Source: a bacterium (GTDB taxonomy: Bacteria > Hydrothermota > Tepidihabitantia > SM23-42 > JAOAFX01). From it: 64,000 bases of DNA. The stretch lies in the NCBI GenBank assembly GCA_036796695.1, contig DAIRCK010000001.1, forward strand, positions 16,539-80,538. The letters run 5' to 3'. Below, piece by piece: positions 33,646-53,818 of the stretch; positions within the stretch are counted from its first letter, which is position 1; the number at the start of each line of letters is the position of its first letter. A program made the position numbers and the translations under genes. Under the pieces are notes generated by a model. That model made no database searches, was not told where the DNA came from, and was given only the letters and a program-made list of their open reading frames with translations.

Positions 33646-34376
33646 TATTATTAACAAATGATGATGGCTATGATGCTGCAGGGCTCCAGGCACTTTATAA
33701 AGAATTAAAGAATAATAAATTTGAAGTCTTTGTCTCAGCACCCCGTTTTCAACAGAGTGGTTCAAGCCATTCTCTTACCCTGCGTCGTCCCATAAGGGTT
33801 GAGAAATTGAAGAATGAATTTTTTGTTGTTGACGGGACTCCAACGGATTGTGTATTACTCGCCTATCATGATCTTGTTCGTAATAAAGAGATAGAAATGG
33901 TCGTTTCAGGCATAAACCACGGTCCAAATATGGGGAGTGATGTATTCTATTCTGGCACTGTCGCTGCCGCACTCCAGGCCGGTACACTCGGAATAAAAAA
34001 GGCACTTGCACTTTCGCTTTCCGGTGAGAGTTACAACAATTTTGACAGTGCGGTTAAATATTCAATAAATTTAATACAGAGACTCCTTGATAAAGCTATT
34101 CAAAATTTTATTCTCAATGTGAACATTCCAGAAAAGGAAATAAAAGGGGAAAAGGTTACAAGAATGGGCAGAAGGATATACCGGGATAAGGTTTTAAGAG
34201 ATGTAGAACAGAATGACGTAATGTATAGTGTTATTGATGGTGTTCTTGATTACCATATTGATACGGATACCGATTTTGAGGCGATTGAGAATAACTTTGT
34301 CTCAATCACACCACTAAAACTCGACCTTACCGATTATGAGAATATGAAGAATTTAAAAGAAGTTTTAGTTAAGTAA
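33636..34376 (+). CDS. surE: 5'/3'-nucleotidase SurE
   Basis: LTNDDG, GTPTDCV, SGINHGPN, YSGTVAAA. Confidence 0.96.
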   Translation: MGLILLTNDDGYDAAGLQALYKELKNNKFEVFVSAPRFQQSGSSHSLTLRRPIRVEKLKNEFFVVDGTPTDCVLLAYHDLVRNKEIEMVVSGINHGPNMGSDVFYSGTVAAALQAGTLGIKKALALSLSGESYNNFDSAVKYSINLIQRLLDKAIQNFILNVNIPEKEIKGEKVTRMGRRIYRDKVLRDVEQNDVMYSVIDGVLDYHIDTDTDFEAIENNFVSITPLKLDLTDYENMKNLKEVLVK

Positions 34377-34597
34377 AACTTCGTTCGCAATCATTACTAT
34401 AATATAGAAACATATTAGATCAAGACTCAAATACTCTTTCTTACTTATTCTTTACCAATCGACCCAACACACTATAAAGTAAAAAGATTAAATCATTTTT
34501 TTACAATTTTCTAATTTAAGCATAACTTTTTTTTATCGTTTTCAGATAAAACTAATCTCTGGGATAGTACCCGTATCTATCCCTTTATTTTTTCAAC

Positions 34598-35584
34598 TTA
34601 GATTTTGTAAATTATTAGGTTAGACCCATCTGTCATATATATATAACCATTAGCTACATAAAAATCTAAAATCGGACCCTCGTAACAATATCGCCCACAA
34701 ATTTTAGGGAGATTTAAATTATTAAACATAATCAATCCTTTAAGTGAGTTTAACACAAATATGTAAGAGTCAGTAGCGATAACCTTATCAACAAATCCTT
34801 CAATTTCAAAACAACACACCTCATGTAAATTTGAAGGTTTAGAAATATTAATTATCCTTAAACCGGCAAAATCATCGGCAACATAGGCATAAGAATCTTT
34901 AACACAAATGTTCCAGCAATATCCTGGGGTATTATAAAAACCAACTTCACGGGGACTTGAGGGATTCGAAATATCTATTATACGGATGCCCTCATCCCAA
35001 TCAGCAATATAAGCATACGAGGTTAATACATTTATGTCACAACAGTATCCAGGGCTATCATAATAACCAACTTCAATAGGATTTGCTGGATCCAATATAT
35101 TGAGAATACGAAGCCCTGCGTCCCAATCAGCAACATATGCATATGAACCAGAAACATAAACACTCATTGCGCGTTCTGTAATATAATGCCCAATATTTTC
35201 AACATCTGTTGGCTTCTTTATAGACCAAATTTCAATACCTTGTTCACCTTCTGCAATATAAAGTGTCTGAGTTTTATGATCGTAAAAAATTTTTTCGATC
35301 ATCCCTTTTGTGCGAATTTCTACAGGGATTTTATACGGATTGTTTGAATTTGTAACATTAATAATATAAACCCTATTATTGGTCCCACAAAAAACTAAAT
35401 TCCTTGACGAATCAAAACTGATTGAATTTAAATAATCAATTTTCAATTTGAATAAAGGTTTAAAATCGGAAAAAACGGACTCAGAACTTTGCATTCTCTT
35501 AAAATTTCTTTTATCCACTTCATACAATGTTTGCGCTAAAACTATGGAGTTAATTAATAACACAAGAAAGAATTTTTCCTTCAT
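34598..35584 (-). CDS. Secreted LVIVD-repeat beta-propeller protein
   Basis: Signal peptide; repeats VSGSYAYVADWDAGLRILNI.DP.NP.EVG.Y. Confidence 0.85.
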   Translation of the reverse strand: MKEKFFLVLLINSIVLAQTLYEVDKRNFKRMQSSESVFSDFKPLFKLKIDYLNSISFDSSRNLVFCGTNNRVYIINVTNSNNPYKIPVEIRTKGMIEKIFYDHKTQTLYIAEGEQGIEIWSIKKPTDVENIGHYITERAMSVYVSGSYAYVADWDAGLRILNILDPANPIEVGYYDSPGYCCDINVLTSYAYIADWDEGIRIIDISNPSSPREVGFYNTPGYCWNICVKDSYAYVADDFAGLRIINISKPSNLHEVCCFEIEGFVDKVIATDSYIFVLNSLKGLIMFNNLNLPKICGRYCYEGPILDFYVANGYIYMTDGSNLIIYKI

Positions 35585-35609
35585 AATGCCTCCCAGCTGT
35601 TATTTCTGT

Positions 35610-35969
35610 TCATATTTTAATTCCAAGGATCGAAGCAATCTTGGATTTCAGAATTTCTGGCGGAGTATTTTTTAGGATAAATCGGTCTCCAAGCAACGTC
35701 TTTGCCTTTTGGGCAAGTTCTTTTTCAGGGTAGGCAGTGATGATGATCACCTTTTCTTTATCCTTTGCCGCCCAGTATATGTCAAGCCCGGTAACATCAT
35801 TCAAAAATAAATCGGTTATTATCAAATCATATGAGTTTTCTCTTATTCTATTGAGTGCCTGATTACCATTTGAGATTCCTTCAACTCTGTAGTCCTTTTC
35901 AAGGATTAAATACAAAGAATGAAGAACTACCAAATCGTCATCAACGATTAGTATCTTCTTCATAAACAC
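35610..35969 (-). CDS. Stand-alone response regulator (single REC)
   Basis: ILIVDDD, DLIITD, IIITAY. Confidence 0.85.
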   Translation of the reverse strand: MFMKKILIVDDDLVVLHSLYLILEKDYRVEGISNGNQALNRIRENSYDLIITDLFLNDVTGLDIYWAAKDKEKVIIITAYPEKELAQKAKTLLGDRFILKNTPPEILKSKIASILGIKI

Positions 35970-36143
35970 CTACCATTTTTTTAAATGCAATCTTTTTATC
36001 TTTGCACGTAGACTTTTTCGGCTCATATTTAAAAGTTTTGATGCATCATCAAATCGCCAGTTCACAATATTCAAAATTGTCCTTATATACATTTCTTCAG
36101 CCTTTTTCTTAATATTATTAATCTTTTTCAATTCTACTTTCAT
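35970..36143 (-). CDS. 57-aa Fis-type HTH protein
   Basis: Below ORF-track cutoff: MKVELKKINNIKKKAEEMYIRTILNIVNWRFDDASKLLNMSRKSLRAKIKRLHLKKW; stop abuts the RR start. Confidence 0.7.
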   Translation of the reverse strand: MKVELKKINNIKKKAEEMYIRTILNIVNWRFDDASKLLNMSRKSLRAKIKRLHLKKW

Positions 36144-36175
36144 TATTTTATTTTTTTAATCTTAACAGGTTAAAC

Positions 36176-36225
36176 AGGGCGGAAGGTTATTTTAATTTTA
36201 TACATTAATCCTCCACTTCCGCCCT
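36176..36225 (-). promoter_or_regulatory. Leader hairpin (10-bp perfect IR AGGGCGGAAG/CTTCCGCCCT) overlapping an 11-aa uORF
   Basis: IR 36176-36185/36216-36225; GGAGG-N4-ATG 36205 to TAA 36170. Confidence 0.45.
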
Positions 36226-36249
36226 TTTACTCTACCCAAAAATATTACT

Positions 36250-36265
36250 TGCAAATTTCGTGCCA
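36250..36265 (-). promoter_or_regulatory. sigma54 -24/-12 promoter TGGCACGAAATTTGCA
   Basis: Exact match to TGGCACG-N4-TTGCW. Confidence 0.85.
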
Positions 36266-36324
36266 GAGATGGTGAATAAAAAGTGATGAAATTTCAAGAG
36301 ATTTTTAATGAGATTTTTTGTTTG

Positions 36325-36456
36325 TGTGAGGAAAAAGTTCACACCAATCTTAATTTTGAATGGGTAAATGCCGAAAACCTATTGAAATTTCAAGAGAATT
36401 AGGCAGATTTGGTATGTGTGATAAATTACATCACAGATGTGAGGTAAAAATTCACG
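36325..36456. promoter_or_regulatory. Three TGTGA-N9-TCAC(A/G) palindromes, candidate bEBP enhancer sites
   Basis: 36325-36343, 36417-36435, 36438-36456; 60-190 nt upstream of the sigma54 promoter. Confidence 0.65.
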
Positions 36457-36940
36457 GAGATTCGCCAACCCTTGAAATTACAGCCTTATAAATTTCATCA
36501 CTTATATAGAATTTTTTTTCCCTGAGTTCATCAAGCAGTGGTTTTACTTTTTTTATTAACCCCAATCTTTTGAAAACCACCAATAAACCAAGAGTGCCAA
36601 TCACTTTGAATCCCGCTGCTATCGCTGAATTTCTTGCCTTCTCCTCATCAATTAAAACCCAATCCGCGTTAATCTCTTTTGCCAGAATTAGTACCTCAGA
36701 TTCGCCATAGCCCAATTCTTCGGATAGTAGGGCGACTTCTATTTGACTCTTTACTTTCTTTACATTGAGCCATTTAGCCTTCGCAACTTCCTTAGATGCG
36801 GGTTTATTTTTACCCTCTATAACCACTTCTTGATACACCTTTTGGGGTATAAATATCTCAGTAAATATCCTTTGCAGATAAACTAACTTACCAATTTTAC
36901 TTAAACCAATCAGAACTGTAGAGTTGGCAACTGCCTTCAC
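36452..36940 (-). CDS. PIN-domain toxin, DUF3368-like
   Basis: VANSTVLI, LGYGESE, VLIDE, GTLGLL. Confidence 0.85.
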   Translation of the reverse strand: MKAVANSTVLIGLSKIGKLVYLQRIFTEIFIPQKVYQEVVIEGKNKPASKEVAKAKWLNVKKVKSQIEVALLSEELGYGESEVLILAKEINADWVLIDEEKARNSAIAAGFKVIGTLGLLVVFKRLGLIKKVKPLLDELREKKFYISDEIYKAVISRVGESP

Positions 36941-37230
36941 TTTTTTGTTTTATTTGCGAGCAAATTTGCATTTTTCAATTCAGTTTGGAGATTTGATTCA
37001 TCATAATTGATTACTGGAATCCGGTTTTTGCCAAGAAATTCAATAAATTCCCATAGGGACATCTGGGCTACAATAGCAGATTTTCTAAGGGTAAGCACTT
37101 TATTTTGAAAAAGTTTTAAAGCCAACAATTCCCTTGATTCTTTTGCAATTAGTTCTTTTGTATAACCATGAGATGATAGCGCGCGATACGCCTCTTCCGA
37201 TAATTCAATTATTGTTTGCACTTTTGCCAT
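36937..37230 (-). CDS. UPF0175-like antitoxin
   Basis: ALKLFQNKVLTLRKSA..MSLWEFIEFL; ATG 37230 with AAGGAG SD. Confidence 0.8.
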   Translation of the reverse strand: MAKVQTIIELSEEAYRALSSHGYTKELIAKESRELLALKLFQNKVLTLRKSAIVAQMSLWEFIEFLGKNRIPVINYDESNLQTELKNANLLANKTKK

Positions 37231-37246
37231 ATTTCTCCTTGGCGAT

Positions 37247-37274
37247 ATTATATTCATAAAATGAAAGAAGTCAA
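37247..37274 (-). promoter_or_regulatory. sigma70-like promoter TTGACT-N16-TATAAT for the TA pair
   Basis: Motif read directly. Confidence 0.7.
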
Positions 37275-37339
37275 TAATAATTCTGCATTAAAAATTTTCT
37301 CCCAGTTGGGCTGAATTTTTTGGTGCTACTATATTCTGT

Positions 37340-38782
37340 TTATTTTTGTAATTTTAGTTTCTTTATCTTTCTGTGGAGTTCTTCCCTTGAGATGCCGATT
37401 TTCTTTGCAGCACGGGTGATGTTCCAGTCTTCTTCTTTGAGAATCTGGCTAAAGTATTCAAGCTCAAATCTTTCAAGTGCCTGTTTTCGGGCTTGTTTAT
37501 ATGCAAGGCTAAAGCCTTGCCCTACAGGAAGAGATTGGCTAAAGGTTTGCCCTTTAGACCCTGAAACAAGTTCAGGGTGACAGGCATTTTGGACCGTCCC
37601 TTTTTCAATAGAGGGTATGTTTCTTTGATTGAGTATCCTCATTACCTCATTTTCACTCTGGGTCATCAATAAATATTCAATTATGTTTTTCAATTCTCTG
37701 ACATTACCAGGCCAGTTATATACTTGAAAGGCATCAAGGAGTTTTTGTGATAATAGATGATGTTTCTTTCTCTGTGGGTCAAATAAATTCATAAAATATT
37801 CTGCAAGTAATGGTATATCATCTTTTCTATCCCTTAACGGTGGTATCTCAATAGAAAACACCTTTAACCTGTAATATAGATCTTCCCTGAATTTCTGTTG
37901 TCTGATTAATATATCAAGATTTTGATTCGTTGAAGCGATGATTCTTGTATCAACACTGACCGGCCTTGTGCCACCAAGTCTATAAAACTCTCCGGTCTCA
38001 AGGAATCTTAATAGTTTGGGTTGTAATATTAAGGGCAAATCTCCTATTTCATCAAGGAAGAGCGTCCCTTTATGTGCAAGTTCGATCTTTCCTTGTTTTC
38101 TCTGCTTTGCATCTGTAAATGCACCTTTTTCATAACCAAATAATTCAGACTCAAATAGATTTTCCGGAATAGATGGGCAATCTATCGCCAGAAATGGATA
38201 TGGTTTTCTTGAACTCAAAAAGTGTATCATCCGGGCACAGACCTCTTTGCCGGTTCCGGTCTCACCGATGATGAGAACACTTGCCTTCGGTTCTTTGCCT
38301 GCTGTTTCTATTTTTTCCTTTATTTTCTTTATCAAAAGGCTCTTCCCTATTAACTCAATCCCGGGTTTTGTTTCAAGAATTGATGTGGTGAGTTCCCTTA
38401 ACCTGAAAAGTTGCCTCTGTTCTTCAGAAATTTTTATAAACCTTTCTATTTTAATTTTTAATTCCTCTGGTGGAATCTTTTTTGTAAGATAATCATCAGC
38501 ACCGGATTTTATTGCCTGGACTGCAGTCTCAATTGATTCATAACCAGTCAGAACAACAATGTATGTCTCGGGTGATATACCTTTTGCCTCTTTTATGAGA
38601 TATAAACCGTCATCAAGTGATGGAAAATAGAGGTCAATGAGCAATAAATCAACGTCATATTCTTTTAAAATCTTCAAAGCCTCTTCTTTTGATAGGGCAG
38701 TTAGAATCTGGTATTCTTTGAGCACCAGAGAGAGACCATTCAAGACACTCTGTTCATCATCGGCAATGAGGATTTTGGGCAT
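37340..38782 (-). CDS. sigma54-dependent NtrC-family activator (REC-AAA+-Fis HTH)
   Basis: GETGTGKE, ELFGYEKGAFTDA, WPGNVRELKN, HTH; start reassigned to ATG 38782. Confidence 0.93.
   Translation of the reverse strand: MPKILIADDEQSVLNGLSLVLKEYQILTALSKEEALKILKEYDVDLLLIDLYFPSLDDGLYLIKEAKGISPETYIVVLTGYESIETAVQAIKSGADDYLTKKIPPEELKIKIERFIKISEEQRQLFRLRELTTSILETKPGIELIGKSLLIKKIKEKIETAGKEPKASVLIIGETGTGKEVCARMIHFLSSRKPYPFLAIDCPSIPENLFESELFGYEKGAFTDAKQRKQGKIELAHKGTLFLDEIGDLPLILQPKLLRFLETGEFYRLGGTRPVSVDTRIIASTNQNLDILIRQQKFREDLYYRLKVFSIEIPPLRDRKDDIPLLAEYFMNLFDPQRKKHHLLSQKLLDAFQVYNWPGNVRELKNIIEYLLMTQSENEVMRILNQRNIPSIEKGTVQNACHPELVSGSKGQTFSQSLPVGQGFSLAYKQARKQALERFELEYFSQILKEEDWNITRAAKKIGISREELHRKIKKLKLQK
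37503..37605 (-). repeat. Stack of REP-like palindromes in frame within the activator linker
   Basis: GTAGGGCAAGGCTTTAGCCTTGC (37503-37525), degenerate copy 37537-37553, TGTCACCCTGAACTTGTTTCAGGGTCT (37556-37582). Confidence 0.75.
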
Positions 38783-38798
38783 AGTAACCTCCAATATT

Positions 38799-38867
38799 AC
38801 GGACAGGGATAAACCCTGTCCCTACATTATCACCCTCACCTTTATCCCCTCCCTCCAAGGGAGAGGA
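38799..38867. repeat. Two intergenic REP-like elements
   Basis: GTAGGGACAGGGTTTATCCCTGTCCGT (minus, 38799-38825); TCACCCTCACCTTTATCCCCTCCCTCCAAGGGAGAGGA (38830-38867). Confidence 0.75.
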
Positions 38868-38901
38868 ATATAGAAACAAAAGTTTATTTGCCTTGTCCGG
38901 T

Positions 38902-40713
38902 CTATCTGGATTCATAAGTTATGGGCAATACAATGACAAATTTGACTCCAATCCCAGGATTGTTTTCCACTCTGATTTCTCCATTATGGACTTCAACAAT
39001 CTCTTTGACAAAGGATAGTCCAAGGCCAAGCCCTTTCTTCTTGGTCGTAGTAAACGGTTCAAAAAGGTCGGGCAGAATATGCTCAGGGATACCACCGGAT
39101 TGGTCTGAAATTTCTATAAACACGGAGGGGCACAGATGTTGACACGGAGGGGCGCGGAGTTCATCACCCTCACCTTTATCCTCTCCCTTCAAGGGAGAGG
39201 AAATATTGGTGCCAGTTCTAATAACTATGTTACAGCCATCCTTCTTTGCCTCATAGGAATTCTGTAATAGATTCAAGAATACCCTGCGCCACTGGTCAGG
39301 GTCAATACGAACTATACCAACATTACCGGGTTGAAAATCTACTTCACAGGGATTTACCCTTTTAAATTCATCCACTGTTTCTTTAATCAATTTATCAAGG
39401 TCAACTTCTCTTGGATTTGGCTCATAAATCCTGCCATGCTCGGCAATCCTATCAATTATCTCACCCAGTCTCTTTATACCGTTAACAATTTCATTAAAGT
39501 ATCTTCCACGCGGGTCATCAGAGGTAAATGTATTTTTTAATTCGTGAGCAATAAGTGAGATACCATATATTGGATTGCGCAGGTCATGGACCATATGTGC
39601 CGCAAACTTGCCGATTGCGGACAATTTCGCGGATTTAATCCTTTCACTGGTCAGGGTCTTCAATTTAATACTCAACTGGTTTATATTACGGGCAATGCGA
39701 TTAAACTCGTTGGGAAAATGGATCGAAATTTCTTTATCAAAATCACCCTGCGCGATTTCATCAGTCCTTTTTAAGATAACACCGGTCTTATTCCTGAGAT
39801 ACGCGCCAGCAAAGATTAATACCACACAAATAAAGGCAGTAAAAATTGAAGTTAGCAATAATCCCCTTCCAAGACCTGCCCTTATTCCAGCGAGCATATC
39901 AGTGTAATCAACCCCCACAATAAAATTAAAACCTTTAAATGATTTACAAATTTCTGGAATAGTATCAAAACAAAAGTTTTTAATACGATAAATCTTGTCC
40001 TTAAGATTGTAGTCACCACTTAAATTATCCTTTCTGATTTCTTTTATCTCATCGCCTGATAATGCCATTGCACTATTGTATAAAAGTGCACCAGATTCAT
40101 CCAGAACTGAGATAAATGAACCGGATGAAAGATTTGAATTCTTTACCGCACCTTCAAAGATTTTAGCAAAACTTATATCCGCAAGCAGCAATTTATTGTC
40201 ATTTAACCTTAAAAATGTCCTCTGGGCATAACCACCAGGGATTGGGACCAAATCTGCAGGAATAATAATAGTATCATTCTGAAATTCATCCACAGACACC
40301 TCAACAGGTGGTAGTTCTCTAAATTCTTCATAGGGCTCTGGTGAAAGATAGGTCTGGTCAGGATTGGATAAAAAAGAAAAAATATTTTTGCCATTTGTAT
40401 CAAACAGACTCACCCGGTAAAACCTACAATCACGGTCAAAGAAGTATGAACCAATCTCTTCTTTGTTATACTGACCTCTGGTAAACAGTAATCGCCTTGC
40501 AAAGTATAGATATTCCTCACACAACCGGCATTCTTTAATAAGTGAATTTACAAATGCATCCGCATATTCAGATAGTCTCTGGTCAATATTCCTTTTGAGA
40601 TTCTGGACTGTTATTGAATGCATTACCAGTTGTATAATTACCATCGGTATGACAATGGCAAATATTAACAATATAATAAAGAATGTAGTAAAAGATGTAA
40701 AGCGGTTATTCAT
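38902..40713 (-). CDS. Membrane sensor histidine kinase (periplasmic domain, HAMP, HisKA, HATPase)
   Basis: VHDLRNP, NLLQNS, DQSGGIP, GLGLGL; start reassigned to ATG 40713, coupled to the SBP stop. Confidence 0.9.
   Translation of the reverse strand: MNNRFTSFTTFFIILLIFAIVIPMVIIQLVMHSITVQNLKRNIDQRLSEYADAFVNSLIKECRLCEEYLYFARRLLFTRGQYNKEEIGSYFFDRDCRFYRVSLFDTNGKNIFSFLSNPDQTYLSPEPYEEFRELPPVEVSVDEFQNDTIIIPADLVPIPGGYAQRTFLRLNDNKLLLADISFAKIFEGAVKNSNLSSGSFISVLDESGALLYNSAMALSGDEIKEIRKDNLSGDYNLKDKIYRIKNFCFDTIPEICKSFKGFNFIVGVDYTDMLAGIRAGLGRGLLLTSIFTAFICVVLIFAGAYLRNKTGVILKRTDEIAQGDFDKEISIHFPNEFNRIARNINQLSIKLKTLTSERIKSAKLSAIGKFAAHMVHDLRNPIYGISLIAHELKNTFTSDDPRGRYFNEIVNGIKRLGEIIDRIAEHGRIYEPNPREVDLDKLIKETVDEFKRVNPCEVDFQPGNVGIVRIDPDQWRRVFLNLLQNSYEAKKDGCNIVIRTGTNISSPLKGEDKGEGDELRAPPCQHLCPSVFIEISDQSGGIPEHILPDLFEPFTTTKKKGLGLGLSFVKEIVEVHNGEIRVENNPGIGVKFVIVLPITYESR
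39121..39201. repeat. In-frame repeat insertion in the HATPase domain
   Basis: CACGGAGGGGC twice, plus a 38-nt near copy (39164-39201) of the 38830 palindrome. Confidence 0.75.
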
Positions 40714-42229
40714 CGCATTTATAGATATAAGGGGAAAGTAATAATAAAGGGTCAATATTTTTGAATTTTTTATTAACAAGGTAAAGGGGATAAGTCCAGT
40801 AGAGAAAGACAAATGGCGGGTCTTCCAAAACGAGTGAATCCATCTGTGCAAGCAAAGAAGCATCGTTAATAGTTTTATACAACTCCCATAATGAATCAAA
40901 TCTTTCTGATTTTAATTCAATCCAGGGTGCTTCAGTAGAAGAATATATGACCAGCTGGGCATCGGGTGTTGAATCAGAAAACATAATTGAAACAGTACCA
41001 AAGTCCCATTCTGGTGCACCCCGTAATACTGCAACCCTTGAGGCGCAGACCAGTTCGGTCTCTATGCCAACTTTTTTCAGTTGACTTTGTAAAAGTTGTG
41101 ATAATTTTCTGGAAAACGGAGTTGGGTAATATTGAAACTTCAACCCCTTCAATTTATTACCCAGTCCTGTCTTTTTTATCAATTCAATTGCCTTTAAAGG
41201 AGAATATTCGTACCTAAAAGGGCTCAGAGTATTTAGTGTAGGACCATCTGCAATCTTTACCCCTGGCATCACCAATAAGTTCTTTATCTCCTCACGATTT
41301 ATTGCATAATTTAATGCCCTTCTCAATATAGAATTTTTGAAGATTGGGTTATCTTTAGAATTGAACAGCAGAACAGTAAGTGATGGAAATGGGTATTGTA
41401 TTATCTGAAATCTCTGCATAAATTCTTCTTTTGTTTGAATTCTTTTTCCATCCCTTTTGAAACATTTTTCTACAACATCCGCGCTTATCGGCGACAGGTC
41501 AACCATTCCATCAAATAAACTCTTTATTGCCTGATTGATGTCCGGGAAGAAAATAACGATAATCTTATCAAGATAAGGCAATTTCTGAGCCCATATATCT
41601 TTTGCCCAGAATCTTTTATTTTTTACCAGCACCAATTCATTTTCATCCCAGGTTTCAAAAACAAATGGTCCTGAGCCGACTGGATGGAAACTGAAATTCT
41701 CGCCGTATTCTTCCACTGCCTCAGAAGGAACTATATAAAGCATCTCGTGATTGAGAGAACTTAGAAAATCCTTGTCTGGACTTTTTAGCAGGAATCGCAC
41801 CCGGAAAGAATCAAGAACTATAATTTCCTGTATGTTATTAACCGGCTCTAAATATGGCCAGGACTTCTTTATCTTCTCATAGGTATATTTCACATCATAC
41901 GCATTTACTACACGTATACCATCTTTAAAACAGGGGTCGGAATGAAAATAACAATTTTTTTTGAGCACAAATTCCCATTGTAGATAATCAGATGAATGGT
42001 TTGCTTTTTCTGTAATCCCCAATTCTGGATTTTCCTGATTATATAATGGAGAATAGACTAGCCTGATAAGTCTCTGGGCTCCGGTACATCCCCAGTCCTT
42101 TGTCGGGTCAATACCAATCAATCCACTGAGCCAGGCAATTCTCAACTCACCCCCGGAGGTTGGTTTAATCTCCTCTGTGCTACAGGAGAGATGAATAAAT
42201 ATTACAAGCAGTAAAATAAAACCCCGCAT
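40706..42229 (-). CDS. Family 5 (peptide/nickel-type) ABC solute-binding lipoprotein
   Basis: Lipobox-like LSC, WEFVLKK..FH, VNAYDVKYT, PVGSGPF; no permease nearby. Confidence 0.85.
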   Translation of the reverse strand: MRGFILLLVIFIHLSCSTEEIKPTSGGELRIAWLSGLIGIDPTKDWGCTGAQRLIRLVYSPLYNQENPELGITEKANHSSDYLQWEFVLKKNCYFHSDPCFKDGIRVVNAYDVKYTYEKIKKSWPYLEPVNNIQEIIVLDSFRVRFLLKSPDKDFLSSLNHEMLYIVPSEAVEEYGENFSFHPVGSGPFVFETWDENELVLVKNKRFWAKDIWAQKLPYLDKIIVIFFPDINQAIKSLFDGMVDLSPISADVVEKCFKRDGKRIQTKEEFMQRFQIIQYPFPSLTVLLFNSKDNPIFKNSILRRALNYAINREEIKNLLVMPGVKIADGPTLNTLSPFRYEYSPLKAIELIKKTGLGNKLKGLKFQYYPTPFSRKLSQLLQSQLKKVGIETELVCASRVAVLRGAPEWDFGTVSIMFSDSTPDAQLVIYSSTEAPWIELKSERFDSLWELYKTINDASLLAQMDSLVLEDPPFVFLYWTYPLYLVNKKFKNIDPLLLLSPYIYKCDE

Positions 42230-42315
42230 AATACCACCTTATTTTATACAATTATTACTACTTTGTCAATATTTATTGCAATTAGGGGAATATGAAAAAA
42301 TTCTTAAGTAGGAGT

Positions 42316-42735
42316 TTAATCTATGGGTCCGAGTTCGGTAATGGATTTTATAAAATTATTTACAACCTCCTGGAATCTGGCGCCTTCTCCAGCAGAAACC
42401 CATTCCAGTTTAAGGCGTCTATCATCAACACCCATTTCTTTCAATAATAATTTGAGTGCATTATATCTCCTCAACGCCTTATAATTACCTGAAATATAAT
42501 GGCAGTCACCCGGGTGGCATCCCGTGATCAAAACCCCATCCACACCTTTTTTGAATGCAGTCAATATAAACTCTGGTTCAATCCTTCCTGAGCACATCGT
42601 TCTTATTATTCTGAAATTGGGATTCATCTGGAGTCTTGAAACGCCAGCCAGGTCAGCACCTGCATAAGAACACCAGTTACAACAGAAGACGATTATCTTT
42701 GGCTTAAAATTAGTCTTATTGTCTGATTGTCCCAT
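42316..42735 (-). CDS. mvhD: MvhD/FlpD [2Fe-2S] subunit
   Basis: CCNWCSYAGAD, MCSGRI, GCHPGDCHY; start at ATG 42735. Confidence 0.92.
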   Translation of the reverse strand: MGQSDNKTNFKPKIIVFCCNWCSYAGADLAGVSRLQMNPNFRIIRTMCSGRIEPEFILTAFKKGVDGVLITGCHPGDCHYISGNYKALRRYNALKLLLKEMGVDDRRLKLEWVSAGEGARFQEVVNNFIKSITELGPID

Positions 42736-42870
42736 AGTCTGATAGTTCTTTAGTGCGGAGTCTAATTGCCTGAAAATCAAGTGGTCCGAAGATATTAATG
42801 ACTATAAGACCATCTGACCATATGACTATATGACTACTCATAGAATGCCTCCACCATCGCCATTATCTGT
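42695..42870. repeat. Near-identical duplicated hdrA-mvhD junction, copy 1 (copy 2 at offset +4026), with 8-nt-period tracts
   Basis: Direct comparison with 46721-46896. Confidence 0.85.
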
Positions 42871-45800
42871 TGTCTTGTGAATCCATACTGGGTCATTGCA
42901 CCAGAAGGACAGGCAGCAACACAGGTTCCACAACCCTTGCAGAGTGCCTCATTAACACTGGAAATGCGTTTACCATCTTTTTCTTTATATAAAATTGCCT
43001 CATAAGGACATAATGCGCCGCACATACCACAACCCGCACAGAGTTCTTCATTGACTGATGATATTGTTGCCTCTGCATAATATTTCTTATTTGATAAAAT
43101 AGTTGCAACACGTGCAACAGCGGCTTGTGCCTGAATTATAGATTCAGCAATTGTCTTTGGACTGTGAGCCATCCCTGCCACAAACACACCCTCAGTGGCA
43201 AAATCAACTGGTCTCAGTTTTATATGGGCTTCGAGGAAGAACCCATCCTGGTTTAAAGGAACCTTGAGCATCTTAGCAAGTTCAGTATTGCTCGGTTCAG
43301 ACACAATACCTGAAGAAAGAACGAGAAGGTCTGTATCAATATTGAATTCTTCCTTAAGAATTGGTTCAAATACCTTGACTTTCAATCTTTCGTTTTCAAC
43401 CCTTACATCTGGCTTATTTTGATCATATCTTATGAAAACAATACCCTTTTCCCTTGCCTTACGGTATAATTCTTCTTTGAATCCATAGGTGCGTATATCT
43501 TTGTATAAAATATAGATATTTGCGTCGGGATTGAGTTCAAGCAGATTCAAGGCATTTTTTATCGCCTGAGAACAACATATACGGCTGCAATACTTTCTCT
43601 TTTCATCACGGGAACCGACACACTGAATCATTACAATGGTCTTATGGTCTGATAGTCGGATAGTCGTATGGTCTGATCCCCTGATACCCTGATCCCCTGA
43701 TATCCTGATATCCTGATAACCTGATAACCTGATTTCCATCTCCCTCTGGGTGACCACTCTCGGGTCTTTGCCATAGAGATATTCGGTTGGTGTATATTCT
43801 TTTGCACCGGTTGCTACAATTATCACCCCATGCTCAAGTTCAATCATATCCTGACATTTGATTTTTGTTTTGTAATTTCCAACAAAACCAGAAATTTCCT
43901 TGATCTCTGCCCCGGTAAATACCTTTATCAATCGATTGTTTTTAATCTTATCGATCATCCTTTCCAAGAAATACCGGACATCCCTACCTTCAAAAGTTTT
44001 ATAGATATGCCTTATGTTACCACCGAGTTCCTTTTCCTTTTCTACAAGAAAGACCTCAAATCCCTGTTCAGATAAAGATAAGGCTGAACTCATCCCTGTA
44101 ATACCACCACCTATCACCAGCGCCTTTTGAATAACATCTATCTCAACCCTTTTTAAGGGTTTAAGCAACCTTGCCTTTGAAACAGCCATCCTGACAAGGT
44201 CCTTTGCCTTCTCAGTTGCCAAAGCCGGTTCATACATATGTATCCAGGAGCACTGGTCACGAATATTTGCCATTTCAAATAAATATGGATTCAAACCAGC
44301 TTCGCGAATTGTATCTCTAAATAATGGTTCATGTGTCCTCGGCGTGCAGGAAGCAACAACGATTCTATTCAATTTATGTTCATTGATCTTTTCAATGATT
44401 CTTTTCTGGGTATCCTGGGAACAAGTATAAAGATTATTTTCAGCATATACAACATCAGGCAATTGTTTTACATATTCAACAATTTCAGGCACATTTACAT
44501 AACCACCAATATTGATTCCACAATGGCAGACAAAAACTCCAATCCTTGGTTTTTCATTTAATACATCCAGTTCCTCAGGATATTCCTTCTTTGTAACCAG
44601 ACTGCCCCTTGCCTCAGCGAGTAATGCCATTGCACTACCAGCAGCGGCCGATGCCTGGGCTACAGTCTCCGGTATATCCTTTGGACCGGCAAATGCACCA
44701 CAAACAAAAATTCCATCACGGATTGTATCAACTGGAATAAATTCAGAAGTTCTGCAAAAACCATAATTATTCAAGTTTATGTGCAAGTAGCGTGATAATG
44801 TGCGCATATCTGATTTTGGCACAAGACCAACCGACAAAACAACCATATCAAATTCTTCCTGTTTAATAGAACCTTCTTCATCTTCATAATGGACGATCAA
44901 ATTTTTTGTTTCTTGGTTCTCTTCAATCCTTGATACCCCGGCACGAACAAATCTAACTCCATATTCGTTCTTCGCACGATTATAATAATCCTCAAATCCC
45001 TTTCCAAATGTCCTTATATCCATATAAAATATTGTTGTCTCAAGCCCGTTCCCTGAATGTTCCTTCGCAATTATTGCTTCTTTTATTGCATAGGTGCAGC
45101 ATACAGAAGAACAATACCCTTTCCCTATCTGTGGGTCCCTTGAACCCACACACTGGATAAAAGCGATTCTTTTTGGTACCTTACCTTCATAGGGTCTTAG
45201 TAAATGTCCTGAAAATGGTCCTGATGCAGATAAAATACGCTCAAACTCAAGACTCGTTACAACATTTTTATAAACACCATAACCAAAATTTGTATAAACC
45301 TTTGGATCAAATGTATCAACACCAGTTGATAAGATAATTGCACCAACATTTATATCTTCAATGACATCACTATCTTTATACTTTATTGCTCCAGCAAGGC
45401 AGATTTTTTCACAAACACCACAACCAAGACAATTATTTTTATCAATCGCATAGACTGCAGGAACTGCCTGTGGGTATTCAATGTAGATGCTCTTTCTACT
45501 TGTTAAACCCTGGTTAAATCTGTCCGCAATTTCAATTGGACAGTGTTTCTTACATTCTCCACAGCCTGTACATTTTGTGGTATCTACATACCGTGCCTTC
45601 TTACGTACATTTACTACAAAATTTCCTGCTTCACCACTCACCCCTTCAATCTTTGCATCGGGGATGATTTTTATATTCAAATGGCGTGCACATTCTACGA
45701 GTTTCGGTGCCATAATACACATTGAACAATCATTTGTCGGAAATGTCTTGTCAAGCATTGCCATTATTCCACCGATAGATGATGAAGAATCCAGCAAATA

Positions 45801-45958: not shown

Positions 45959-45993
45959 ATTGTTTAGGATTTAGAATTTCGTATTTAGGATTT
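45959..45993. repeat. 7-nt-period tract (AAATCCT AAATACG AAATTCT AAATCCT on minus strand)
   Basis: Overlaps the stop codon at 45985. Confidence 0.7.
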
Positions 45994-46761
45994 AATACTC
46001 TGGTATACCGGATATCCATCTCTTATCTCCTTCATTGATACATCACCTTTTTCCTGGAGTGAGCAGAGACTCTTAAAGACAAAATCAGGAGTTATATTTA
46101 ACTTTGAGGCAATCTGCGGAACAGTCAATTCATTATTCTTCAGTATTCTTATAATTCGCGCCTTTGTATATTCTTCATATAATATTCTTTCAACTCTTTT
46201 CTCATACTCTTCAGCTAAAATTTTTTCACCATAAACATTCTCTTGCTCAGTTATATGATACTCGACACCAGTCAGGTGTCTGAATCTCTCACCCTGAAGC
46301 ACATGCCTGACTGATAGTAACATATCTTTTGTATCTTCATTTATTTTTATTGGTCCTAAATCTTTTATTCTTTCAATAAATGTGTTAACAAGATTGGCAA
46401 ATCTTTCTCCTTCTGCTGCAGATACCCAATCTAAATATAATCTGTCTTTTTCAATTGTAGTATAGGATAAAATTTTCTGAGTAGCAATAATCCTTTTTTC
46501 TGTATTGTAATTCCCATTCAGATAATGGCAGTCGCCAAAATGGCAACCAAGAACCATAACACCATCAATTCCCTTCAGAAGTGCATTTATTATAAATACT
46601 GGGTCAACCCTTCCCGAACACATCACCCTTATAACTCTTATATTTGGTCGGTATTGAATCCTTGATACACCGGCTAAATCAGCCCCGGCATAAGAACACC
46701 AGTTGCACAAAAATCCGAGTATCTTTGGCTTAAAATTAGTCTTATTGTCTGATTGTCCCAT
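45985..46761 (-). CDS. mvhD: MvhD fused to a helical linker and a C-terminal winged-HTH-like domain
   Basis: LCNWCSYAGAD..GCHFGDCHY; tail IIRILKNNELTVPQIASKLNITPDFVFKSLCSLQEKGDV. Confidence 0.85.
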   Translation of the reverse strand: MGQSDNKTNFKPKILGFLCNWCSYAGADLAGVSRIQYRPNIRVIRVMCSGRVDPVFIINALLKGIDGVMVLGCHFGDCHYLNGNYNTEKRIIATQKILSYTTIEKDRLYLDWVSAAEGERFANLVNTFIERIKDLGPIKINEDTKDMLLSVRHVLQGERFRHLTGVEYHITEQENVYGEKILAEEYEKRVERILYEEYTKARIIRILKNNELTVPQIASKLNITPDFVFKSLCSLQEKGDVSMKEIRDGYPVYQSIKS

Positions 46762-46896: not shown

Positions 46897-49800
46897 TCAT
46901 TGGTAAAGTGTCTCATTGTTATTGCCTGCTGTGGACAGGATGCAGCACAACTACCACAACCCTTACAATAGGCAGATATGACTTCTGAACGATAACCTTT
47001 TTCAGTCTTTTTCAACAAATGTGCCTGATACGCGCACAAGACCTCGCAGATTCCACAACCAATGCATTTTTCTTTATCCACTTCAGCAACTGCAGGCAGG
47101 ACTTCGATTGTATTACTGGCGAGCACAATACCCGCCCTTGCACTCGCTGCCTGAGCCTGGGCAATTGATTCATCAATCGCCTTTGGTGAATGTGCCATAC
47201 CACAGATAAATATTCCATCTGTAGCAAAATCAACAGGACGTAATTTCATATGTGCCTCAAGGAAAAAACCATCCTCATTCAGAGGCACTTTTAATAACTG
47301 GGCAATCTCTTTATTAGATTTGTCCGGTACAATCCCTACTGAAAGAACCACAATGTCAGCAATTATTTCAATCGTTTCATCAAGTATCGGTTCTCTTGCT
47401 CTTACAATCAAGTTCTCTTTATCTATAATAATTTCAGGTTTATATTCATCATCATATCTTATAAATATCACACCCGCATCCCTTGCTTTTTGATAATATA
47501 TTTCATTAAACCCGTATGCCCTTATATCTTTGTAAAAGATAATTACCTCGTTTTCAGGATTTCTCTGTTTAATAAGCAAAGCATTTTTTATCGCCTGAGA
47601 ACAACATATACGGCTGCAATACTTTCTCTCTTCATCCCGCGACCCAACACATTGAATCATTACAATGGTTTTATGGTCTGATAGTCTGATAGTCGGATAG
47701 TCGGATGGTCGGATAGTCGGATGGTCTGATCCCCTGATACCCTGATCCCCTGATATCCTGATATCCTGATAACCTGATAACCTGATTTCCAGCTCCCTCT
47801 GTGTAATTATCCTCGGGTCTTTGCCATAGAAGTATTCGGTTGGTTTATACTCTTTGGCACCGGTTGCAACGATTATTACCCCGTGTTCAATCTCAATTAT
47901 TTCCTGATTATTTTTTCCAATTTCTCGTCTTTCTATTCTTGTATGGAAGTTTCCGATATATCCAGTCACCGATTCTATTTTACTACTTTTATAAATTTTT
48001 ATATTGGGGTGTGATTCAACTTTATTTATCAACGAATTCAAATATTCTTTAACATCCCTTCCATCAATTGTATTATTTATATGCCTTGCATTCCCGCCCA
48101 ATTCTTCCTTCTCTTCTACAAGAAAAACTTCGTAACCCTGGTTTGCCAGACTCAATCCTGCATTCATTCCACTGATTCCACCACCGATAACAAGTGCCTT
48201 CTGAATCACCGGGATAGTAATTGCTGGTAGAGGTTCTAAATAACCTGCCCGGGCACAAGCCATTCTTACAAGGTCCTTTGCCTTAGCTGTTGCCTGTTCA
48301 GGTTCCTGGGAATGAACCCAGGAACACTGATCTCTTATATTTGTGAATTCTAAAAGAAATTTATTCAATCCTTTTTCCCTTATCGTCTCCTGGAATAAAA
48401 CCTCATGGGTTCTTGGTGTGCAGGCAGCAACGACAACCCGGTTAAGTCTATACTTCTCAATCATCTCTTTTATATGTCGTTGTGAATCATCAGAACAGGA
48501 ATATAGATTATTCTCTGCATATACTACATTGGGTAAGGTCTTTGCATATTCAACAACCTCCATCACATTCACTGTTCCGGCAATATTTATCCCGCAATGG
48601 CAGACAAAGACACCAATTCTTGGTGGTTCACCAGAAAAATCAATTTCCGCAGGATATTCAATTTTTTTTGTGAGTGAAAACCTTTGGTCTTTTATCAACT
48701 CAATTGCATTCTGTGCTGCACCGCTTGCCTCAATCACGGTCTCAGGAATATCTTTGGGTGCAGATGCAGTTCCACAGAGAAAAATTCCAGGCTGGATGGT
48801 CTCAACTGTAGAAAATGGAAGGGATTTGAAAAAGTTGAATTCAGTTAGTTCCAAATTCAAAATTTGGGCAAGTTTTTTGACATTATCATCAGGCACCAAT
48901 CCCACCGATAATACAACCATATCAAACTCTTCTTTTATTAATTTACCCTGCTCATCCTCATATTTGAGCAACAGATTTTTGCTCTCGGGTAATTCCTTTA
49001 TTTCTCCGATCATCGCCCATTTGAATCTTATCCCATATTTTTCTTTTGCCCTTTTGTAGTATGCCTCAAAACCCTTGCCAAATGTGCGCATATCCATATA
49101 AAATATTGTGCATTCAAGAGAACGATTATGTTCCTTCATTAAGATCGCCTCTTTTATGGCATAGGCACAGCAGACTGAAGAGCAATACCCCTGACCCGAT
49201 TTTGTATCACGTGAGCCCACACATTGAATAAAGGCAACCCTTTCTGGTTCTCTCTTATCAGATAGTCTTAACAGATGCCCCTGAAAGGGTCCAGATGCAT
49301 TCAATATCCTTTCCAGTTCAATAGATTTTATTACATTTTGATATCTCCCATAACCATACATCGGCTTTAGACGCGGGTCAAAATGTTTAACACCTGTGCC
49401 AATGATGATACTGCCAATATTAATATCAATAATCTTATCACTCAGATTAAAATCAACTGCCTTTGTTGGGCATAGAATCTCACAGACCCTGCATTTACCA
49501 CCCTTTAAAAAATAGGTGCAATGCGCTTTATCAATCACTGCCTTGTTCGGAACTGCCTGGGGAAATGGAACATAAATTGCCTTTCTTTTTCCCAGGCCAG
49601 ATTCAAATTCTGATTCAACCTTAATCGGGCATTTTTGCCAGCAAACACCACAACCATTACACTTTTCCCAGTCCACAAATGGAGATTTTTTCAAAATTCG
49701 CACATTAAAGTTGCCTGGCTTGCCTGATAACTCCAAAAGTTCTGCATAGGTAATTAATTCAATATTTGGATGCCTTCCGGCACTAACAAGTTTCGGAGCA

Positions 49801-51609: not shown

Positions 51610-52404
51610 TCATCTAAACAGTAGGTGCTTTTCTATCTTTTTCAGCAGTGTCTGGGTGTCGACAGGTTTATCAATGAAATCATCTGCAAGATGGTCAATT
51701 GCAATGTCAACTGCATATTCAGGTTTTGAAAGTTGCTGTCCTATTGCTGTTAGCATAATTATCGGAATTGGCCTTGTCTGCGGATTCCTTCTTAATTCAT
51801 AACATACTGTATATCCATCCTTTCCCGGCATAATCACATCAAGAAATATCAAATCTGGATTTTCAATCTTTGCCTTCTGTATACCTTCATCACCATCTTT
51901 TGCAGTAATCACTTCAAAACGATTTGCCAGAAGGATCTGTTTTGTCGCTTCAAGAAAATCCGGATCATCATCAACGAGTAAAATCTTAGGTCTTTCACTT
52001 TCTACCTTTGGTTTAGGTGCGGAAGTAGTTAAAAGGAAGTTAACCTTGTCTAAAAGTAATTCAGGGCTTGCAGGTTTTTCAATATAAGCATCTGCTTTAT
52101 GCTGAATACCAATGTTTTCCGGATAACCGCCTGGTTTTGCACCAATAGAAGTGAAGAGAATTACTGGTATATTCTGTAAGTTAGGATCATCCTTTATCTC
52201 CCGGCAGACAGAAAAGCCATTTATATCCGGGAGGATAACATCAAGGATAATTAGATCAGGCTTTTCATTAAGCACCTTTTGAATTCCGGTCTTTCCATCA
52301 TAGGCAGGAATAACTTCGTATCCAGCATTATTGAGAATGATTTTGTTTGCTTCAACAAAATCCCTATCATCATCAATGAATAAAATTTTTGATTTTTTCA
52401 TCAC
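51610..52404 (-). CDS. Tandem double-receiver (REC-REC) protein with no output domain
   Basis: Two complete REC domains (LDVILPD..EKP; LDVIMPG..DKP). Confidence 0.88.
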   Translation of the reverse strand: MMKKSKILFIDDDRDFVEANKIILNNAGYEVIPAYDGKTGIQKVLNEKPDLIILDVILPDINGFSVCREIKDDPNLQNIPVILFTSIGAKPGGYPENIGIQHKADAYIEKPASPELLLDKVNFLLTTSAPKPKVESERPKILLVDDDPDFLEATKQILLANRFEVITAKDGDEGIQKAKIENPDLIFLDVIMPGKDGYTVCYELRRNPQTRPIPIIMLTAIGQQLSKPEYAVDIAIDHLADDFIDKPVDTQTLLKKIEKHLLFR

Positions 52405-53723: not shown

Positions 53724-53732
53724 ACCTTAATA

Positions 53733-53748: not shown

Positions 53749-53818
53749 GGTTCTCTGAAGAAAACTAATGAAAAATCTTGACTTTTTTCTCTTTTGGAGA
53801 AACATGCCTTATCTTTAT

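Follow-up and report, generated by a model that had tools for sequence, protein, structure and literature searches.

A cluster of three genes encoding a solute-binding protein (SBP), a sensor kinase, and a sigma54 regulator, all on the minus strand within 37340-42229 of a 64-kb stretch of DNA from an uncultured WOR-3 bacterium (the whole of the stretch that was analysed, hereafter the window), probably constitutes a dedicated three-component sensor acting on a sigma54 promoter. Judging from its sequence and those of its relatives, the SBP is most likely the ligand-sensing partner of the kinase, having left transport. This three-component reading was put forward in the first-pass annotation of the DNA and is strongly supported by comparison, as the gene order, the coupling of the SBP and kinase genes, and their matched divergence are invariant in 11/11 related loci, and the SBPs fall in a separate clade. 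The three genes and the elements associated with them are as follows.

40706-42229, minus strand: family-5 (cluster C, Dpp/Opp/Nik type) solute-binding putative lipoprotein of 507 aa, the proposed co-sensor (Pfam, AF2, tree)
38902-40713, minus strand: sensor histidine kinase of 603 aa (Pfam HAMP, HisKA, and HATPase_c; motifs, hydropathy)
37340-38782, minus strand: NtrC-type sigma54 response regulator of 480 aa (Pfam Sigma54_activat 2e-64, Response_reg 8e-22, HTH_8 1e-9)
42241-42269, minus strand: candidate sigma70-type promoter of the SBP-kinase(-regulator) unit (TTGACA-17-TAAAAT, with the ribosome-binding site AAGGTGG and the start codon ATG 42229 after it)
40706-40713, minus strand: 8-nt overlap of the SBP and kinase genes, ATGAATAA, with the kinase start codon within the last SBP codons and stop, indicative of translational coupling
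38829-38868, minus strand: palindromic, REP-like element between the kinase and regulator genes (by blastn, 95% identical to a second copy over 40 nt)

The SBP matches the Pfam family SBP_bac_5 (PF00496) with E=1e-49 and 170 bits (cut-off 32.4) over profile positions 3-358 of 368, and its AF2 model (pLDDT 88.6, pTM 0.80) has a complete bilobed cluster-C fold with the extra domain of the Dpp/Opp type. Foldseek matched this model to DppA at E=1e-36, with TM reaching 0.73 in alignments of about 510-540 columns and DppA, NikZ, and GbpA as the best PDB structure matches (TM 0.6-0.73), while the best PDB sequence matches (GsiB/YliB, DppA, and HbpA) share just 17-22% identity with the SBP. No NCBIfam cut-off was reached for the named SBP equivalogs (GsiB, NikA, DppA, OppA, SapA), GsiB being the best at 87 bits vs. 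594. All 10 kinase-linked SBPs compared share a cysteine (position 16) where the hydrophobic stretch of the signal peptide ends; the window lipobox, H-L-S-C, is slightly non-canonical, with a His at -3 that lies outside the usual pattern. The kinase-linked clade also carries a lineage-specific insertion with an invariant Cys100 (FHxDPCF), unlike typical SBP_bac_5 sequences. SBP_bac_5 proteins have no clear ligand preference (PMC10443332). For the distant members of the clade, alignments to DppA-type structures are unreliable in the loop of the Asp that binds the peptide alpha-amino group, and no such Asp could be assigned from them. With family priors as the basis, the ligand class may be a peptide or a metal chelate, as the first-pass annotation proposed.

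The first-pass annotation had also observed that the 3' end of the SBP gene overlaps the start of the kinase gene and that the activator gene follows. Both observations hold, the regulator gene lying downstream of the kinase gene and the overlap amounting to 8 nt once the kinase start is corrected. The start of the mechanical ORF (TTG 40899, giving a 194-nt overlap with the SBP gene) is unsupported by any orthologue; because the orthologues all begin with MN(N/R)RF, the true start is ATG 40713. Orthologue alignment likewise replaced the regulator start at TTG 38794 by ATG 38782. The 8-nt overlap has the form ATGAATAR in the window and in the six other WOR-3 junctions read (L001, L003, L005, L009, L010, and L011), and the distant relatives L012-L014 have a 4-nt ATGA/GTGA overlap at this junction, so a start/stop overlap is kept in every junction read (the window and nine related loci). 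Upstream of the SBP gene, the sigma70 candidate matches 11/12 consensus positions and is tied best in 34400-43000; it is a consensus match only, in a region where promoter-like sequences are no more numerous than in shuffles.

As the first-pass annotation had stated, the SBP gene has no permease or ATPase gene nearby. The window was surveyed by a Pfam scan of those ORFs of at least 110 aa that were judged to be genes and, over 57405-63828, by homology to L001, an annotated locus. Neither BPD_transp_1 nor OppC nor oligo_HPY turned up among the presumed genes, and MlaFED (17348-19602), about 21 kb from the trio, is the sole ABC system of the 64 kb. Nor is there an importer permease or ATPase in any of the 11 related loci, in sequence of up to 10 kb per side. 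The usual arrangement of an ABC importer, in which the SBP is encoded with its cognate permease and ATPase, is therefore seen neither in the window nor in these loci, and SBP orthologues beside permeases, the observation named beforehand as telling against the sensor reading, were encountered in 0/11. The fold and the Pfam family of the SBP are common to the binding proteins of Opp/Dpp/Nik/Gsi importers (cluster C), from which it differs in its low identity, its lack of permease context, and its separate clade. The kinase-linked SBPs are monophyletic (100/100 support, stem length 1.08). Outside this clade, two BPD_transp_1 genes come after each of the SBPs P0017 and P0018 (28-29% identity), with an ABC_tran gene as well in P0017, and the nearest outside SBPs having permease genes nearby adjoin permeases of the Opp/Dpp type.

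The SBP might be put to dual use, still receiving substrate for an ABC importer whose genes lie elsewhere in the genome and also reporting its ligand load to the kinase, as in CBP-ChiS and DppA-Tap. Such a role would suit the full cluster-C fold that the SBP retains with high model confidence, the known family-5 signalling SBPs (CBP, DppA, and AibA) are all transporter-associated (PMC8050422), and the permease survey covers just the window and the related loci. We nevertheless consider it quite unlikely in view of the lack of permease and ATPase genes at all 11 loci of the clade (in sequence of up to 10 kb per side), the long stem that parts the kinase-linked SBPs from the permease-linked ones, and the strict coupling to the kinase start codon, which suggests that the kinase is the main partner of the SBP.

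Each of the 11 related loci that were recovered has the SBP-kinase-regulator order (at contig ends, it was judged from the genes present), among them the WOR-3 loci L001, L003, L005, L009, L010, L011, and L017, and the distant loci L012, L013, and L014. Neighbourhood conservation had been proposed beforehand as a check on the sensor reading, and at every one of these loci an SBP gene is conserved beside the kinase gene, an arrangement expected of SBP-dependent sensors of the LuxPQ, TorTS, and AioXSR type. No natural fusion of SBP and kinase exists. The flanks of the trio vary by locus (Hdr island, enolase, radical SAM, Mrp, Crp, or peptidase). The SBP and kinase identities to the window pair fall in step (73/83, 80/81, 66/66, 56/55, 54/53, 45/46, 29/31, and 28/28%). 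The pairs number about 13, too small a set for co-variation between residues. That the SBP is conserved as strongly as the kinase over deep divergence fits, without proving, a selected binding function, and its two-lobe fold with hinge is fully kept and confidently predicted. Both points weigh against the decidedly improbable reading in which the SBP-like lipoprotein is a ligand-free, structural modulator of the kinase (cf. QseG-QseE and YycH/I-WalK) and the dCache-like domain or an envelope state is the true input, a reading that could draw on the atypical insertion with Cys100 and on the precedent of QseG. QseG is a small lipoprotein of the outer membrane that lacks an SBP fold and is not known to have a solute ligand. 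According to the abstracts of the sources, the QseG/QseE/QseF system of Escherichia coli resembles the window in combining a lipoprotein, a membrane kinase, and a sigma54 regulator, QseF activates a sigma54 promoter through upstream sites, and QseG, unlike the window SBP, is not described there as a solute-binding protein (PMC6075780, PMC12691602).

The kinase consists of TM1 (~5-37), a periplasmic domain of ~250 aa, TM2 (~282-308), HAMP, HisKA (His373), and HATPase_c (N box 481, G1 537, G2 561). The second copy of the REP-like element (~39164-39203) is translated in frame, in the ATP-lid loop of the kinase. Searched alone against Pfam, the sensor domain gave nothing significant (dCache_1 at E=0.14, 12 bits vs. 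a cut-off of 45). Its AF2 model (pLDDT 82) comprises H2-50, two beta-rich modules, and H246-296, and has the dCache architecture of a long N-terminal helix and two PAS-like alpha/beta modules between two TM helices. Foldseek matched it to TlpA, vpHK1S-Z8, Mlp24, TlpC, and KinD with E down to 5e-8 and modest TM (0.4-0.6), and PctA is also among its dCache-fold matches. The model thus predicts a dCache-like periplasmic domain of the kind present in other SBP-dependent receptors, of which ChiS and MbaA have sensors given as ‘not annotated (dCache-like)’ (PMC8050422). Since dCache domains can bind ligands unaided, the kinase may have a ligand input of its own.

When 1.84e9 representative proteins were searched exhaustively by HMMER with the sensor domain (258 aa), only seven matched at E<=1e-3. 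Five of the seven are kinases of the WOR-3-type family, the three distant full-length ones all directly follow an SBP_bac_5 gene, and every full-length relative that was placed sits after such a gene. A search of species-representative genomes with an alignment of full-length kinases gave four family loci (two labelled WOR-3 and two unclassified MAGs), three of them already recovered; the other four matches share the kinase core only. Adjacency without contact, with the kinase sensing a compound directly through its dCache-like domain and the SBP merely co-expressed (e.g., to scavenge or chaperone that compound), would accord with the small-ligand binding common among dCache domains and with the matches to TlpA, Mlp24, PctA, and KinD, but is very improbable given that the sensor domain is found only beside this SBP clade, that the two diverge in step, and that dCache_1 stays below significance in Pfam as it does for the SBP-dependent receptors in PMC8050422.

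On the output side of the probable three-component sensor, the regulator has Asp50 in its REC domain, Walker A (GETGTGKE, 173), GAFTDA (220; one change from GAFTGA), Walker B (LFLDE, 241), a repeat-built linker, and HTH_8. It has the features of an NtrC-family enhancer-binding protein and reaches no NCBIfam equivalog cut-off. Downstream of its gene lie the following features.

36250-36265, minus strand: sigma54 promoter (-24/-12), TGGCACGAAATTTGCA, the only exact match in 64 kb to the consensus used (TGGCAC-N5-TTGCW)
36417-36435, no strand assigned: distal enhancer (UAS) candidate, the perfect palindrome TGTGAT-N7-ATCACA, the only exact match in the window
36325-36343, no strand assigned: proximal enhancer candidate, the imperfect palindrome TGTGAA-N7-CTCACA (as read on the minus strand)
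36287-36300 and, as a second copy, 36383-36396, minus strand: CTCTTGAAATTTCA box, in two exact copies, one after each enhancer
36177-36224, minus strand: 5'-leader hairpin of the sigma54 transcript (GGGCGGAAG...CTTCCGCCC; fold -24.3 kcal/mol, z=-2.6)
35970-36143, minus strand: mini-Fis protein of 57 aa with HTH_8 only (Pfam, 1.3e-6), first gene of the sigma54 operon
35610-35963, minus strand: single-domain receiver (REC only; Pfam Response_reg 9e-18), a conserved output of the module
34598-35584, minus strand: secreted LVIVD-repeat beta-propeller (Pfam LVIVD 1.6e-37)
36452-37257, minus strand: UPF0175 antitoxin and DUF3368 (PIN-like) toxin pair (Pfam), between the regulator gene and the target promoter and outside the module

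A relay from the kinase to the promoter at 36250 had been suggested in the first-pass annotation. It is strongly supported, as a sigma54 promoter is conserved downstream of the activator gene in relatives, namely in L001, L003, L012, L014, and L017. The distal enhancer candidate is conserved in L001 and L003, with TCACA/TGTGA palindromes also in L012. The CTCTTGAAATTTCA box, which from its sequence is possibly an IHF-like bending site, is conserved in L001 and L003, as are the stems of the leader hairpin; a search of 34000-43000 against Rfam matched no family, leader hairpin included. Orthologues of the lone receiver follow the sigma54 promoter in L001, L003, L012, and L017 (54-89% identity), and mini-Fis has an orthologue in L001 (77% identity) and none in L003. 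The window propeller is without a T9SS C-terminal sorting domain; its L001 orthologue has 433 aa and a Por_Secre_tail. The output wiring is not universal, because L010 lacks both the regulator HTH and a recognisable sigma54 promoter. At the spot corresponding to the UPF0175/DUF3368 pair, L001 and L003 have it missing or decayed.

The presence of two bEBP genes in the window makes rpoN likely in the genome. Control of the upstream Hdr island by the trio is less likely, because the island has its own sigma54 regulator, Cache kinase, and sigma54-like promoter (53733-53748), and because the trio occurs without Hdr neighbours in L010, L011, L012, and L014.

The module is real and most likely represents a lineage-restricted variant of LuxPQ/AioXSR-type sensors: the design itself is known, and the lineage-specific version would be new. 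The sigma54-dependent regulator AioR acts on a sigma54 promoter in its vicinity. The AioX/AioS/AioR system of Agrobacterium tumefaciens, which senses arsenite, resembles the window in having a dedicated periplasmic SBP encoded beside signalling genes instead of a transporter, and in a membrane kinase with a Cache-like sensor unannotated by Pfam (PMC8050422). Differences are that AioX is an SBP of the phosphonate-binding family (PF12974) rather than of family 5, that the AioXSR sensor is listed as sCache-like and that of the window is predicted to be dCache-like, and that the ligand and regulon (arsenite oxidase) of AioXSR are known. The periplasmic domain of LuxQ is of the double-PAS/dCache-like type and is not known to bind a ligand on its own, and the LuxQ pathway ends at the sigma54 activator LuxO. 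In LuxP/LuxQ of Vibrio, as in the window, the SBP gene adjoins the kinase gene and no transport role is listed (PMC8050422); however, LuxP belongs to the Peripla_BP_4 family, and LuxQ is a hybrid kinase working via LuxU, whereas the window has a plain HAMP-HisKA kinase with its own regulator alongside.

Within family 5, CBP of the chitin-sensing CBP/ChiS system of Vibrio cholerae is the only SBP_bac_5 protein listed as a sensor-kinase partner (PMC8050422), and ChiS shares with the window kinase the unannotated, dCache-like sensor. The CBP gene lies with its own ABC transporter and serves both uptake and signalling, whereas the window clade has no transporter nearby at any locus, and the output of the window is, unlike that of CBP/ChiS, a separate sigma54 regulator. 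In the Myxococcales, genes for an NtrB-like kinase and the NtrC-like activator CrdA (the crdS-crdA cluster) are conserved with SBP_bac_5 and beta-propeller (FG-GAP) genes (PMC3147164). The five kinases matched by the window sensor domain are all of the WOR-3-type family, so CrdS probably does not share this sensor domain.

In the mechanism that we propose, where we infer the SBP-kinase contact, the ligand, what the lone receiver does, and whether regulation is positive or negative, the SBP and kinase would be made together from their own sigma70-type promoter and be translationally coupled through the 8-nt overlap. The periplasmic SBP would bind a small ligand, for which the family prior suggests a peptide-like compound, and in one of its states (open or closed) would dock onto the dCache-like periplasmic domain of the kinase. 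TM2 and HAMP would then carry the signal to the HisKA/HATPase core, so setting the phosphorylation of the regulator at Asp50. Once phosphorylated, the regulator would assemble near -95 and -185, on the TGTGAT-N7-ATCACA enhancers, and open the sigma54 promoter at 36250-36265, turning on mini-Fis, the single-domain receiver, and the secreted LVIVD propeller, with the lone receiver likely acting as a feedback element or phosphate sink.

A bolder version, which we regard as doubtful, would have the family-5 SBP as an obligate, transport-free kinase subunit in WOR-3 and a few related uncultured lineages, the LuxP/LuxQ design having been re-invented independently from an Opp/Dpp-type ancestor; the sensor would respond to a peptide-like cue and control T9SS propeller surface display via a sigma54 circuit with lone-receiver feedback. 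The cue could possibly be a thiol or disulfide peptide, because the best matches of the SBP are GsiB-like, Cys100 is invariant in the clade, and an Hdr island is a frequent neighbour.

To our knowledge, only a few SBP-dependent kinases have been described, and the single known family-5 example, CBP/ChiS, borrows the binding protein of a transporter. Here, a whole clade of family-5 SBPs appears to have quit transport and to be inherited with one lineage-specific sensor kinase. Three genes and one promoter make a compact system for studying communication between a Dpp/Opp-type Venus-flytrap protein and a dCache-like kinase, and the trio is among the few regulatory circuits of the uncultured phylum WOR-3 that are tractable. 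Discovery of its ligand would indicate which environmental cue these organisms monitor, and the stimulus behind the widespread LVIVD/T9SS surface propellers.

Three genes, all on the minus strand, occupy 37340-42229 and encode a family-5 solute-binding protein (SBP; a putative lipoprotein), a HAMP histidine kinase, and an NtrC-type sigma54 response regulator; this module is best read as a three-component sensor. Its elements are as follows:

42269-42241, minus strand: candidate near-consensus sigma70-type promoter (TTGACA-17-TAAAAT), 5' of the SBP gene
40706-42229, minus strand: SBP gene, 507 aa, Pfam SBP_bac_5 (E=1e-49)
38902-40713, minus strand: kinase gene
37340-38782, minus strand: regulator gene
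36417-36435: perfect palindrome TGTGAT-N7-ATCACA, upstream of the sigma54 promoter
36325-36343: imperfect copy of the palindrome, upstream of the sigma54 promoter
36250-36265, minus strand: sigma54 promoter, TGGCACGAAATTTGCA

The SBP, whose gene is also preceded by a ribosome-binding site, reaches no named NCBIfam equivalog (the top match, GsiB, scores 87 bits where the cut-off is 594). According to Pfam, the kinase contains HAMP, HisKA, and HATPase_c domains, and the regulator REC, sigma54 AAA+, AAA lid, and HTH_8 domains, with motifs intact in both (His373, N box, G1 box, and G2 box; Asp50, Walker A, Walker B, and GAFTDA, respectively). The periplasmic domain of the kinase (~250 aa) is flanked by two hydrophobic segments. 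Because all orthologous kinases begin with MN(N/R)RF, we place the kinase start at ATG 40713, inside the final SBP codons. The resulting 8-nt overlap (ATGAATAA) agrees with the first-pass annotation, in which the SBP 3' end overlapped the kinase start. The regulator starts at ATG 38782.

A palindromic REP-like element of ~40 nt is present in two copies (95% identical), one in the kinase-regulator spacer (38829-38868) and the other (39164-39203) translated in frame within HATPase_c, in a loop flanked by the N and G1 boxes that in orthologues holds different inserts, variable in length. The regulator's AAA+-to-HTH linker (37499-37591) is also palindromic and repeat-like at the DNA level (peptide ...CHPELVSGS...VGQGFSLAY), and the related loci L001, L003, and L010 each have a different repeat-derived insert at this site.

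Close relatives of the SBP share 52-80% identity with it, after which identity falls to 28%; the names these relatives bear point to a candidate-division WOR-3 bacterium as the source of the window. We fetched six orthologous loci via the SBP (L001, L003, L005, L009, L010, and L011) and a seventh, L017, via the kinase. The kinase follows the SBP in all seven, and the sigma54 regulator comes next wherever the contig continues, so that the SBP-kinase-activator order first noted in the window is kept as far as the contigs reach. The ATGAATAR overlap is found in 6/6 loci where the junction was read (all except L017). The neighbours vary: the window, L003, and L009 have an Hdr island, L001 has another, Hdr-like cluster, L005 has Mrp-type genes, L010 has enolase, and L011 has radical-SAM genes. 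Since the trio stays constant while its flanks vary, it is the conserved unit. SBP and kinase identities to the window pair drop together (73/83, 80/81, 66/66, 56/55, 54/53, 45/46, 29/31, and 28/28%). Among species-representative genomes, the kinase family was found in four, of which two carry the WOR-3 label and two are unclassified MAGs. In L011 (6369-9518), the kinase and regulator genes are each broken by an in-frame stop with homology continuing past it (e.g., ...EIEYFQ*ILQQEEW...), which may reflect a pseudogene, assembly error, or read-through.

The absence of permease and ATPase genes near the SBP, as initially described, holds within the window. A Pfam scan of ORFs of at least 110 aa taken as genes, which for 57405-63828 drew in part on the homologous, annotated locus L001, found no BPD_transp_1, OppC, or oligo_HPY in the 64 kb, and the sole ABC system was MlaFED (17348-19602), which traffics lipids and does not work with an SBP of the family-5 type. 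In a maximum-likelihood tree, whose outgroups were only sequences returned by a word-based search, all kinase-linked SBPs form a single clade (100/100 support, stem length 1.08) separate from other matches. No clade locus contains a transporter in the sequence covered, up to 10 kb on each side. P0017 and P0018, two SBPs just outside the clade (28-29% identity to the window SBP), are each followed by two BPD_transp_1 genes, P0017 by an ABC_tran gene as well, and are ordinary importer SBPs. A less likely alternative to the sensor reading is that the SBP serves both transport and signalling, as in CBP/ChiS.

The SBP model is confident (pLDDT 88.6) and along its full length matches liganded and unliganded DppA, NikZ, GbpA, AppA, and OppA, and the protein is therefore predicted to have a complete Venus-flytrap fold. 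SBP_bac_5 proteins have no clear ligand preference (PMC10443332). A Cys at the signal-peptide end, invariant in 10/10 kinase-linked SBPs, is compatible with a putative lipoprotein. The clade also has an insertion of its own, FHxDPCF, whose Cys is likewise invariant. A second, less likely alternative is a ligand-free accessory lipoprotein like QseG.

In the model of the kinase sensor (pLDDT 82), two PAS-like modules stand between a long helix and a return helix. This model matches the dCache domains of TlpA, vpHK1S-Z8, Mlp24, TlpC, and KinD; its match to Pfam dCache_1 is below significance. Pairing of an SBP with a dCache-like sensor has precedent, since the ChiS and MbaA sensors are likewise listed as "not annotated (dCache-like)" in a review of SBP-dependent receptors (PMC8050422). 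A HMMER search with the periplasmic domain of the window kinase (258 aa) against 1.84 billion representative proteins gave seven matches at E<=1e-3, five of them kinases of the same family and two repeat proteins. Three distant full-length kinases (sensor identity 29-34%) all lie directly 3' of an SBP_bac_5 gene and overlap it by 4 nt, and a sigma54 regulator follows in L012 and L014, where the contig continues. The third alternative, also less likely, is simple co-expression, with the kinase itself sensing directly.

The sigma54 promoter proposed at 36250 proved to be the sole exact consensus in 64 kb, and is matched 3' of the regulator gene in five further loci: L001 (same sequence), L003 (AGGCACAAAATTTGCT), L012 (TGGCACAGGAATTGCA), L014 (GGTATGTTATTTGCA), and L017 (AGGCATGAAATTTGCA). 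A CTCTTGAAATTTCA box follows each of the two palindromes, and both palindromes and boxes are kept in L001 and L003. L010 is an exception, as its regulator stops at the linker insert without reaching the HTH, and a sigma54 box was not visible there. Four features lie on the sigma54 transcript: a leader hairpin, which is conserved; a Fis-type HTH protein of 57 aa; a single-domain receiver; and an LVIVD propeller preceded by a signal peptide. Of the outputs, the lone receiver is the best conserved, located 3' of the promoter in L001, L003, L012, and L017. The hairpin (36177-36224; -24 kcal/mol, z=-2.6) matches no Rfam family; L001 and L003 have the same stems but different loops, and the loop holds a Shine-Dalgarno and ATG, forming a uORF of 11 codons in both the window and L001 and ATG-TAA only in L003. 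The window propeller (34598-35584) lacks the ~90-aa C-terminal T9SS sorting domain of its L001 orthologue (78% identical) and seems to be cut short immediately ahead of surE.

In the window, an inserted UPF0175/DUF3368-PIN toxin-antitoxin pair (36452-37257) separates the regulator gene from the enhancer region. Toxin-antitoxin pairs of other families occupy the corresponding position, ahead of the sigma54 target, in L012 (HepT/MNT, 11163-11817) and L011 (MNT/HEPN-like, about 9600-10319), and the site resembles a hot spot for insertion. A decayed 3' end of DUF3368 remains in L001, and L005 has a UPF0175/DUF3368 pair upstream of the SBP.

The link between the trio and the neighbouring Hdr island is weak: a separate sigma54 regulator, Cache kinase, and sigma54-like promoter belong to the island, and in other loci the trio is present with no Hdr genes beside it. 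This second sigma54 two-component system (51610-57300) comprises a regulator (55951-57300) and an sCache_3/HAMP kinase (53945-55858), with a sigma54-like box (AGGCACGTTTTTTGCA, 53733-53748) preceding genes for a REC-kinase and a REC-REC protein as well as hdrCBA. Two giant HdrA paralogues carry in-frame tracts of short TATCAGG/GACTATC-like units (43632-43730 and 47661-47783), 98.7% identical over 76 nt despite divergence of the HdrA genes. A second MvhD/FlpD gene (45985-46761; 258 aa, FlpD domain at residues 14-136) has a C-terminal extension of ~120 aa with no Pfam match.

From these gene-level observations we infer a three-component sensor in which the SBP would bind a periplasmic ligand and signal through contact with the dCache-like domain of the co-translated kinase. 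The kinase would then set the phosphorylation state of the regulator, which, acting from the two palindromes, would activate the adjacent sigma54 promoter. The lone receiver made from this promoter may drain phosphate from the kinase as feedback or pass the signal onward.

AioX/AioS/AioR and LuxP/LuxQ-LuxO are nearest in logic, and CBP/ChiS in SBP family, although CBP still belongs to a transporter (PMC8050422). A layout of lipoprotein, kinase, and sigma54 regulator is shared by QseG/QseE/QseF (PMC6075780), and the Myxococcales crdS-crdA cluster includes a propeller gene along with an SBP_bac_5 gene that has not been studied (PMC3147164). The module is a variation on the known SBP-dependent sensor design and not a new kind of system, differing in its family-5 SBP clade with no transporter in any locus, a sensor domain almost absent elsewhere, and a sigma54 output that includes a lone receiver.
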